A stretch of 64,000 nucleotides of DNA from Octopus vulgaris (taxonomy: Eukaryota). The position numbers and the translations under genes are program-made. Where the stretch lies: positions 36,580,001 to 36,644,000 of the forward strand of contig OX597821.1 of NCBI GenBank assembly GCA_951406725.2. Direction: 5' to 3'. This document shows positions 10,844 to 57,279 of this stretch, piece by piece (position 1 is the first letter of the stretch; every line of letters begins with the position of its first letter). The notes under the pieces are model-generated. The model had not been told where the DNA came from, made no database searches, and saw only the letters and a list, made by a program, of their open reading frames with translations.

Positions 10844-10847
10844 TGCC

Positions 10848-12230
10848 AGAAGTACTTAAGCATTGATAAGATACTGTGAATAGAGTGACCCAAGAATATA
10901 GAAAAATATAGCAGCTGGAACTCTCCTCTTACTACAAGAGAATATCCCACAAAACATTTGCCATACCAGTGATGATTCCACCATTTGGTCCTTAGAGGAA
11001 ACCTGTAGAAGAAATCAACTCTATGGACGTTAAAACTCGCAAGATCCTGACATGAAATGGAGGTCTCGACAGAAATAGTGACGTCGACAGGCTCTACCTA
11101 TGAAGAGATGAAAGAAGGTGAGGCATGAGGTCAGTGCAGACAGTTCTCGAATATCGCATAGTCTATCTCAGGCAGCACTTGCTAAACAGCAGCAAAAATA
11201 AATACATTAGCTTAGCGCTGAAAAGTAAAGAGATTTATATCCTACATGTCGGTAGCGAACTCTCTGGAAACATTCTCTTCCAGATGATCTCCCATACAAC
11301 CCCAGAACTACCGGACTAATATACCTCAGAGATGACCTGGAGGTGAAGCACTCACCATACCAATAAGAGACAATGCACGGGAATGTTCCCTGAAGATTTG
11401 ACGATGACAGTAATAGCGACATTAAGCGCAGCCTCTTTTGGACCTGTTACTCTCCATCACACTTTGAAAGCTATGCATTTGCATAGAGATTGTTACGGAA
11501 TACCTAACAAACACAAGAGATAGTGAAGCCCTTCGATCTTCAAAATGCAACCGAAAATATAGGTCGTCATATTTCTGTGGAAGACCTCAAACATGTGATT
11601 ACCAGCTGCTCAAAATGTCATCATGTTATTACCTCCCTATACGACACGACGTTAACACAAAACCAATATACGATGCCCTACGGAAAAATGTTTGTCCTGA
11701 AATAAATATAGTGTATCCCAGTTATTGAAAACGTACACAGATATCAGTACAAGGAATACTGGTGGAACATTCCCATCAAAACATCTGTTAACAGTAAACA
11801 TAACAGACCAGATATTGTTGTTTGGGCTAAACGAGGAAACCATCATACAGGTTAGCTATCTTACTGGTGCTTGAAAGTCAAAGAGAAAGAAGATAACTAT
11901 GGACAATTACTTCGAAACCTCCAGCTTCTATATCCAGATTAAAATTTCACATTTATACCAAAACTAATTGGTGCACATTGTTTAGTGACTAAATGCCTAA
12001 GTGACAATCTGAATAAGCTAGGGTTTTCAGAAAAAGAAATCAGCCAACTCACCCGCACGTTACGAATACAATCTGTAAGTAGAACGGTAAAAAATATGCA
12101 AGACTTTCCTCACGTTTAAAAGGTGTCATTGTTTAGTTCTTCGGTATTCCAACGATGAAGCTTTGTATCGATTTTAGAAACCAGCTCCTTCTCTAGAGAA
12201 AGAATTCAAATAATTCAAAACAGAAGAGAT
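10848..12230 (+). mobile_element. R4/Dong-like RLE-type non-LTR retrotransposon, 5'-truncated and decayed
   Basis: Broken frames give MDVKTRKILT*NGGLDRNSDVDRLYL (ending 11100), the zinc-knuckle region EDLKHVITSC..YYLPIRHD, EYWWNIPIKT..HNRPDIVVW (11799-11825, restriction-like endonuclease) and KEKEDNYGQLLRNLQLLYP. Many stops and frameshifts. Confidence 0.8.
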
Positions 12231-12265
12231 CATGCATGCATGCATACACACATACATACATACTT

Positions 12266-12313
<48 letters not shown>

Positions 12314-12361
12314 TTACATGCATGTGTATATATATATATATATATATACATACTTACATGC

Positions 12362-12407
<46 letters not shown>

Positions 12408-12409
<2 letters not shown>

Positions 12410-12934
12410 TTATCAAGCTTCTGTGTTTCTAGTACATACTTTGCCTTTTAATGTACTTATATATGAATAATATATGGCTTGTGCTAGAAATACCAGCGAT
12501 AATAATTAATTTTATTTTATCGCACTTCGACTTTGTTTACATATTTCTCGATAAATTTTGAGCGTTAGACAATATACCAGAAATCCCTAGTTTGTCGGGT
12601 ACGTTCTGCGTCTGCGCAGTGATCTGATCAGTTAGAGAGAGCAAATTATTAGACGCACATGTTTCTAGTGAGGTGCGATTTCACAATAACAGGGCTCTTA
12701 CCGATGAATTCTCCCTGAGTAATTAAATTATTTTTATTACTGAAAAGAACGAAACTGCAGTCTAAGAGGAACCGAGTTAGTAAACGTTTTTATTTTCATT
12801 TCACTAAATTTATCAAGCTTCTGTGTTTCTAGTACATACTTTGCCTTTTAATGTACTTATATATGAATAATATATGGCTTGTGCTAGAAATACCAGCGAT
12901 AATAATTAATTTTATTTTATCGCACTTCGACTTT
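12408..12934 (+). mobile_element. Hammerhead-containing 400-bp unit with exact 127-bp terminal direct repeats (retrozyme-like or non-autonomous Penelope-like)
   Basis: 12408-12534 equals 12808-12934 (period 400 bp). Hammerhead at 12695-12768; (TA)n on both flanks; no meaningful ORF. Confidence 0.75.
12695..12768 (+). ncRNA. Type I hammerhead ribozyme-like motif (U4C variant)
   Basis: CTCTTA-CCGATGA-aTTCT..AGTAAT..ATTACT..AGAAc-GAA-ACTGCAGT(palindrome)-C-TAAGAG. Perfect 6-bp helix I; GUC triplet at 12760-12762. Confidence 0.75.
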
Positions 12935-12959
12935 ATATACATATATATATATATACACA

Positions 12960-56790: not shown

Positions 56791-57279
56791 CTGATCGGGA
56801 ATGCTAACTTCGATCACTTGCTTTTAACTACATTCACTGTTCTGTTCTGTTTTTACTTTGACAGATTTCATATGCATATATATTTATACATATGCACACA
56901 CACGTTTAGAATAAATGTGAATATACTTAATACAGAGGATAGAATTTATTCCTTCACTCAAAACTAGGTTTTCACGACATCAATAATCTGAGTTCCTTGG
57001 CATGCTCTTCAGAAACAAGGAATTAAAGAACGAAGCATCGGCTTAATATAAATGGCCTTATGGACATATATTTATTGATAGAATAAATAGAAATATTTAT
57101 GAGAACCATGTCTTTCCTATATTGTTTTTTACTTTTAATTAAAATTCGTCCAACTGCGAATCGAAATCATATTGCCGTGTTAACTTTTGAAAAGTGCATG
57201 GTTGAGAAAATAGTACTCGAATACCAAATGTAGAGTAAAATACTATTTTATAGAAGCTGGAAAAACATAACCTTCACAC

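Follow-up and report, generated by a model that had tools for sequence, protein, structure and literature searches.

A 400-bp non-coding unit is present as 1.3 units at positions 12408-12934 of the window (the whole 64-kb stretch of DNA that was analysed). The features recognised at this locus are as follows.

12388..12406, + strand: left copy of a possible 19-bp target-site duplication, (TA)n followed by CACA, identical to 12941-12959
12408..12534, + strand: 5'-truncated upstream partial copy (pseudo-LTR-like), formed by the terminal 127 bp of the unit and lacking the hammerhead, an exact repeat of 12808-12934
12423..12493, + strand (second copy 12823-12893): predicted stable hairpin of 14 bp in the repeated part, pair probabilities 0.9-1.0
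12496..12523, + strand (second copy 12896-12923): predicted hairpin directly upstream of the apparently fixed 3' end, outer pairs ~0.93
12535..12934, + strand: full 400-bp non-coding unit, period 400, 33.75% GC, its cyclic order recurring in the diverged contig X5 record 25
12695..12768, + strand: type I hammerhead motif, match to Rfam RF00163 (Hammerhead_1)
12762..12763, + strand: predicted cleavage site after GUC (C12762), at the hammerhead consensus position and intact in this copy
12935..12944, + strand: ambiguous 3' junction, in which 8 of 10 letters equal the unit's continuation and the TA target is resembled too
12941..12959, + strand: right copy of the possible 19-bp target-site duplication, identical to 12388-12406

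The initial annotation had described two identical 127-bp direct repeats exactly 400 bp apart, the lack of a meaningful open reading frame and (TA)n on both flanks, and all three observations hold. The segments 12408-12534 and 12808-12934 are identical at 127/127 positions with a spacing of 400, the longest ATG-started frame is 36 aa when the unit is read as a circle, and (TA)n flanks the copy on the left and on the right. BLAST prolongs the repeat match to 12944 with two mismatches, which places the 3' end of the copy between 12934 and 12944. The 19-bp target-site duplication is weak, because CACA trails 13 of the 136 (TA)≥6 runs in the window. No further copy of the unit was found within the 64-kb window, and a reading of the repeat sequence showed none of the LTR hallmarks (TG..CA ends, PBS, purine tract).

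The locus of 1.3 units carries a single hammerhead, located outside the duplicated part, and would therefore be unable to release a unit-length monomer by self-cleavage alone. Taken as a single locus it is an ordinary copy and probably a dead end. The identity of the repeats had also been read as the mark of a recent event; this is weak evidence when taken alone, as 0 differences over 127 sites only bounds the divergence of the pair below ~2.3% (95%, by arithmetic).

The window as a whole is rich in microsatellites and, by its repeats, resembles animal DNA of octopus type. In the left flank (12262-12406), a compound microsatellite, a CTTACAT-(G)CATG-TG block recurs as three near-copies set between TA runs. 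No tRNA was found in the window, and matches to miRNAs, which fell on (TA)n runs far below the cut-off, were rejected.

Upstream of this microsatellite, and ending just before it, lies the 3' part of a decayed non-LTR retrotransposon (10845-12120, + strand) with many stops and frameshifts. The remnant was missed by Pfam, PDB and two word-index searches and was recognised by a full HMMER scan, which returned 145 protein relatives at E≤0.001. RVT_1 is present in three of the seven relatives tested, one relative matches R2 proteins in PDB, and an upstream frame of the remnant aligns with the top hit at E 6e-29. These similarities make the neighbour of the unit an R2-superfamily element (reverse transcriptase plus restriction-like endonuclease), which by its motifs may be R4/Dong-like.

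The hammerhead motif and its predicted fold

A type I hammerhead with a GUC site, as proposed in the initial annotation, was recovered by Rfam: RF00163 matches 12695-12768 with 29.3 bits and an E value of 1.5e-5 (for a scope of 261 bases × 4227 families), though this is below the curators' cut-off, a gathering score of 34. It is the sole Rfam match in the 261-base stretch scanned. Helix I (12695-12700 with 12763-12768, CUCUUA/UAAGAG) forms six of six pairs, the core reads CCGAUGA..GAAA, and helix II is long (12708-12750). Helix III, ACUGCAGU, is a palindrome (12754-12761); it consists of two pairs closed by that palindrome, and with a second copy is predicted to form an 8-bp duplex of -11.1 kcal/mol. 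A palindromic helix III suited to dimers is a trait of metazoan hammerheads (PMC4209133).

Two departures from the consensus are found in the hammerhead of this copy, namely U4C, carried by the segment 12701-12707, and, in place of the opening pair of helix II, an A-C mismatch (A10.1-C11.1). The initial annotation was silent on both, and on the single hammerhead lying outside the duplicated part. PMC3088659 reports that U4C has considerably lower activity in vitro and yet supports viroid infectivity.

Neither the circle nor the linear locus is predicted to fold into the active hammerhead (helix I probability 0.01), and forcing it has a predicted cost of 6.8 kcal/mol. In the predicted fold, a competing pairing joins CAGGG (12690-12694) to CCCUG (12713-12717); the GGG of this CAGGG is also present in a canonical-core variant among the contigs described below. 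This pairing might serve to switch the ribozyme off or, alternatively, represent contact between stem I and stem II, comparable with the pseudoknots in PMC3088659. Compared with shuffled sequences, the circular fold is only modestly better (z -1.65; 5 of 60 shuffles were as good).

Helix changes in other members keep pairing, and one of these members has a canonical core, which argues that the ribozyme fold is real. X2 record 23 carries 12768 G>T together with A at the partner position 12695, giving A-U instead of C-G in helix I, and X5 record 25 carries 12699 T>C with G at 12764, giving C-G instead of U-A; the linkage of such paired changes on single contigs was deduced from distance columns. 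The same X2 record has a canonical core, CUGACGA, and GUC/GAC where helix II starts (12747A/12748G). Moreover, X2 record 22 (139 nt, depth 2805) and X1 record 6 (78 nt, depth 415) carry exactly the hammerhead sequence of the present copy, U4C and the A-C pair included. Both departures thus recur in numerous identical copies and are a subfamily trait rather than decay confined to this locus.

A second hammerhead-like pattern in the window, at ~56950-57022 (57012) on the - strand, is loose with weak helices and probably arose by chance. Sequence-pattern scans gave 0 hits in viral contigs, 0 and 1 in metagenomes and 0 and 0 in prokaryote genomes. The single hit, in a eukaryote-like metagenome contig (L001, 799-855), is an unrelated type I hammerhead-like motif whose helix III is also ACUGCAGU; it shares with the unit only 14 nt of the hammerhead core.

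A repeat family in public contigs and its ends

The unit or part of it is present in 20 of 24 listed runs, all of them contig sets and none listed as RNA, which counts neither way (run X10 is RNA by guess and may hold DNA); at least a fifth of its words is found in 16 of the 24, and four species labels are represented. Contigs of four of these runs were placed on 12470-12869, a permutation of the unit with both element ends inside, the small-share runs X17-X20 being left out of the placement. Altogether 331, 523, 2 and 71 contigs of the four runs were placed, across all identity bands, in keeping with the earlier proposal of a multi-copy, retrozyme-type unit as opposed to a local duplication. 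The X2 contigs divide by identity into 133, 143, 186 and 61 at 99+, 95-99, 90-95 and <90%. Single-contig depths in X2 reach 21,882 and 25,000, with 20-53 the lowest listed; depth is not copy number, but these values suggest hundreds of unit copies or more. Judged from these contigs, the unit is a diverged multi-copy family. Literature searches yielded no description of the family, nor of any retrozyme from a cephalopod, though supplementary species lists may include the family.

Contigs also read through the 12534|12535 boundary (X2 record 17, X5 records 25-26 and X10 records 10-11). X5 record 25, a diverged contig of 430 nt, passes once round the unit with an overlap of ~30 nt, like a closed loop of an assembly graph. 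This wrap-around could reflect a circle, an array or collapsed 1.x-mers; in short contigs 1.x-mers, arrays, circles and dispersed copies look alike. The joint from 12869 to 12470 occurs in all four runs, but lies inside the repeat and is expected from the locus alone.

The analysis of ends covered 19 of 62 loose-end rows and 28 of 936 pieces, and other 3' ends may exist. Three of the nine listed rows behind the unit run into (TA)n, and together these comprise 19 contigs from two runs. Their 3' ends lie at 12544 (five X1 contigs and nine X2 contigs) and, for a variant end, near 12539 (five X1 contigs), which is equivalent to the copy's own 3' end within ~10 nt. An X2 row at 12524 (five contigs) has the same variant letters with no printed TA run, and is not counted among the 19. 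Two X10 contigs (the row behind 12847) leave the unit near 12858 into (ATC)n, a possible second end or target, and in the remaining four listed rows behind the unit diverged unit sequence goes on. The best TA-like stretch of the unit, 12854-12869, is away from the end site, so TA homology alone is insufficient to account for that site.

None of the 10 listed rows before the unit contains (TA)n, and variable 5' truncation is not visible there; nor was a 30-40-bp tail seen in the listed rows. The depth profile along the unit was set aside as a guide to such truncation, since it sums the depths of overlapping contigs. Other upstream sequence is joined to the unit's 3' part before 12787 (one X2 contig and three X10 contigs) and before 12816 (five X2 contigs, mixed). 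These sequences may come from a different subfamily or from an autonomous partner; the motif upstream of 12787 is absent from the window.

Taken together, the ends suggest that the unit's 3' end is largely fixed and TA-targeted. The initial annotation had proposed insertion into (TA)n in a Penelope-like fashion, and this gains support from the other copies whose 3' ends also appear to run into (TA)n. It had further envisaged circular permutations with variable start points, which were not borne out: among the listed rows the (TA)n 3' ends cluster at 12539-12544.

Comparison with known elements

Non-LTR retrozymes are 150-450-bp, low-GC, non-coding units with a type I hammerhead (PMC7229834; bioRxiv 10.64898/2026.07.22.740005). 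The present unit shows the same marks, with a type I hammerhead in a unit of this size range, no ORF, a GC content under 50% and many genomic copies. It resembles metazoan non-LTR retrozymes in size, low GC, copy number, palindromic helix III and the absence of LTR, PBS and PPT, the mussel units being 350-390 bp against 400 bp here (PMC7229834). Target-site duplications longer than 4 bp are a further mark of such retrozymes; the 19-bp match at this locus, mostly TA, would be one if real. An 'active' copy as defined by Li et al. has at least two tandem units with complete hammerheads; the present locus has one and fits their monomer class (bioRxiv 10.64898/2026.07.22.740005). Fixed 3' ends in (TA)n, as seen here, are not described for non-LTR retrozymes in the accessible parts of these sources (PMC7229834; Li et al., 2026), and the core with U4C and the A-C pair is likewise unlike those of the non-LTR retrozymes described there. 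That the element is a retrozyme-type repeat is well supported by its sequence features; it appears new to the literature found, but its kind is known from many animals.

Animal retrozymes have been argued to be non-autonomous derivatives of Penelope-like elements (PLEs), related to PLE pLTRs (Li et al., 2026, bioRxiv 10.64898/2026.07.22.740005). A typical PLE insertion consists of a full copy with a 5'-truncated copy ahead of it, and several clades favour microsatellites or (TA)n (Craig et al., 2021, PMC8557442). Indeed, the locus shares with EN+ PLEs the partial tandem (its orientation, 5' versus 3', being taken from the hammerhead strand), a defined 3' end past the hammerhead, AT-rich or (TA)n targets, a long helix II and a palindromic helix III. 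It differs from them in having no RT/GIY-YIG ORF and a hammerhead outside the duplicated part; their 30-40-bp tail was not visible in the listed rows. The Poseidon protein of the anole makes nicks in AT-rich DNA and begins reverse transcription at internal sites, ~85-92 nt beyond the hammerhead cut (Frangieh et al., 2024, PMC11167929), whereas the cut site and the 3' end are 172-182 nt apart here. In vitro this protein uses uncut RNA, and cleavage is not needed (PMC11167929). Non-autonomous Chlamys PLEs such as MRC1 also have non-coding units, pLTRs and head-to-tail copies and were once mistaken for LTR elements; unlike the present unit, they come from green algae and mostly lack hammerheads (PMC8557442). 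Plant LTR retrozymes are, as here, non-coding and hammerhead-bearing with direct repeats at both ends, but have a hammerhead in each LTR (type III according to Li et al.), PBS, PPT and 4-bp TSDs, none of which is found at this locus (PMC6765202).

An LTR retrozyme or TRIM was rejected as a candidate, the hammerhead being in the single-copy part and not in both LTRs, with PBS, PPT and a 4-bp TSD absent. An autonomous PLE was rejected too, as the unit contains no RT/GIY-YIG ORF and its flanks are a microsatellite and an unrelated LINE remnant.

Mode of insertion

We consider it quite probable that the locus is a copy of a multi-copy 400-bp hammerhead repeat whose 3' end is almost invariant and lies in (TA)n, the repeat being likely a non-autonomous PLE (non-LTR retrozyme) inserted by a borrowed Penelope-type enzyme. 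Against this reading, no autonomous partner was found in the 64-kb window, and Naiad, the PLE clade best documented on (TA)n, is without hammerheads (Craig et al., PMC8557442). The sub-threshold Rfam score, U4C, the absence of the active hammerhead from the predicted fold, the modest stability of the circle and the lack of (TA)n in the 10 listed rows before the unit count against it as well, and the covered rows are a minority of the ends.

The unit might instead be mere pLTR debris of an autonomous PLE, not mobile as a 400-bp unit. The contigs that join other upstream sequence before 12787 and 12816 would suit this, as would the 5' truncation that is the rule for PLE insertions (Li et al., 2026, bioRxiv 10.64898/2026.07.22.740005); however, the unit closes on itself at 400 both at the locus and in the diverged X5 record 25, it holds no ORF over 36 aa, and the upstream motif of 12787 is not in the window, so that we regard debris as unlikely. 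Were reverse transcription to start anywhere on an RNA circle, genomic copies would be random circular permutations. A more-than-unit length with identical repeats and a contig wrapping once round the unit are what such a process could leave, but the 19 contigs from two runs that end in (TA)n within ~10 nt of the copy's end, and the absence of any other (TA)n end among the 19 rows listed, speak against it. The clustering of 3' ends thus argues for a fixed reverse-transcription start, as in PLEs, and makes random permutation very improbable.

The nearby remnant brings in a further explanation: an R2-superfamily LINE, with its restriction-like endonuclease, would have carried the unit as a SINE-like passenger. 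The decayed LINE on the same strand, whose end lies ~290 bp upstream, would be an example. The segment 10845-12120 is indeed a broken RT/RLE non-LTR element, and some clades of R2-superfamily type target microsatellites. The unit and the remnant nevertheless share no sequence, the many stops and frameshifts of the remnant contrast with a unit that has identical relatives at high depth, and partial tandems are a PLE trait (Craig et al., PMC8557442); a LINE passenger is therefore decidedly unlikely, if marginally less so than random permutation. The last alternative, and the one to which we give the least credence, is a satellite monomer partly duplicated in place or by unequal crossing-over, with no RNA step in the insertion. 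Contigs cannot separate arrays from dispersed copies, and local amplification as satellites is possible for retrozymes (Li et al., 2026, bioRxiv 10.64898/2026.07.22.740005), but a satellite origin fits poorly with the sharp ends within a microsatellite, the possible target-site duplication and the same type of 3' junction in many other contigs.

For the preferred reading, insertion by a borrowed Penelope-type enzyme, the following route may be envisaged. A donor copy would be transcribed and a (TA)n tract nicked by a PLE endonuclease, upon which the PLE reverse transcriptase would start at a fixed internal RNA site, about 170-180 nt downstream of the hammerhead cut site. One whole unit would be copied, and the second pass would come to a halt 127 bases later, so that a 1.3-mer is left with TA runs on either side. 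Two RNAs come into question as the template: a circle produced and ligated by way of the ribozyme, or a linear multimer that stayed uncut. Since the copy reads across an intact cut site, one of these two is indicated, and the only template thereby ruled out is a cut linear monomer on which the enzyme made no jump. We infer the steps of transcription, cleavage and circle formation, as well as the identity of the enzyme.

The choice between a circle and an uncut multimer as the template is about even. The initial annotation took the more-than-unit copy as the trace of a circle, with which it is compatible; it is not diagnostic, since a PLE partial tandem and uncut RNA fit as well. That the two repeats are identical although the family is diverse somewhat favours a circle, in this generation or a previous one, and the weakened core somewhat favours an uncut template. 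The hypothesis that circles serve as templates is itself in print, both for PLEs (PMC4209133) and for retrozymes (PMC7229834).

A more specific scenario, which we put forward tentatively and hold to be possible but doubtful, is that this (TA)n-targeted retrozyme family records Penelope-type target-primed reverse transcription round a ribozyme-made 400-nt circle from one fixed start, with a young, doubly altered-core subfamily (U4C, A10.1-C11.1) that spread by slow dimer cleavage or without cutting. If true, this would provide genomic evidence for a still hypothetical route of retrozyme mobilisation, and the altered-core subfamily would offer a natural experiment on the need for hammerhead activity. 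The dependence of retrozymes on PLEs has so far been proposed from co-occurrence and pLTR similarity, and not from insertion mechanics. Two features deserve attention, the 3' end fixed in (TA)n and the subfamily with an altered core: a family that combines such an end and target with canonical as well as altered cores could serve to test which enzyme moves retrozymes and whether the circle is the template.
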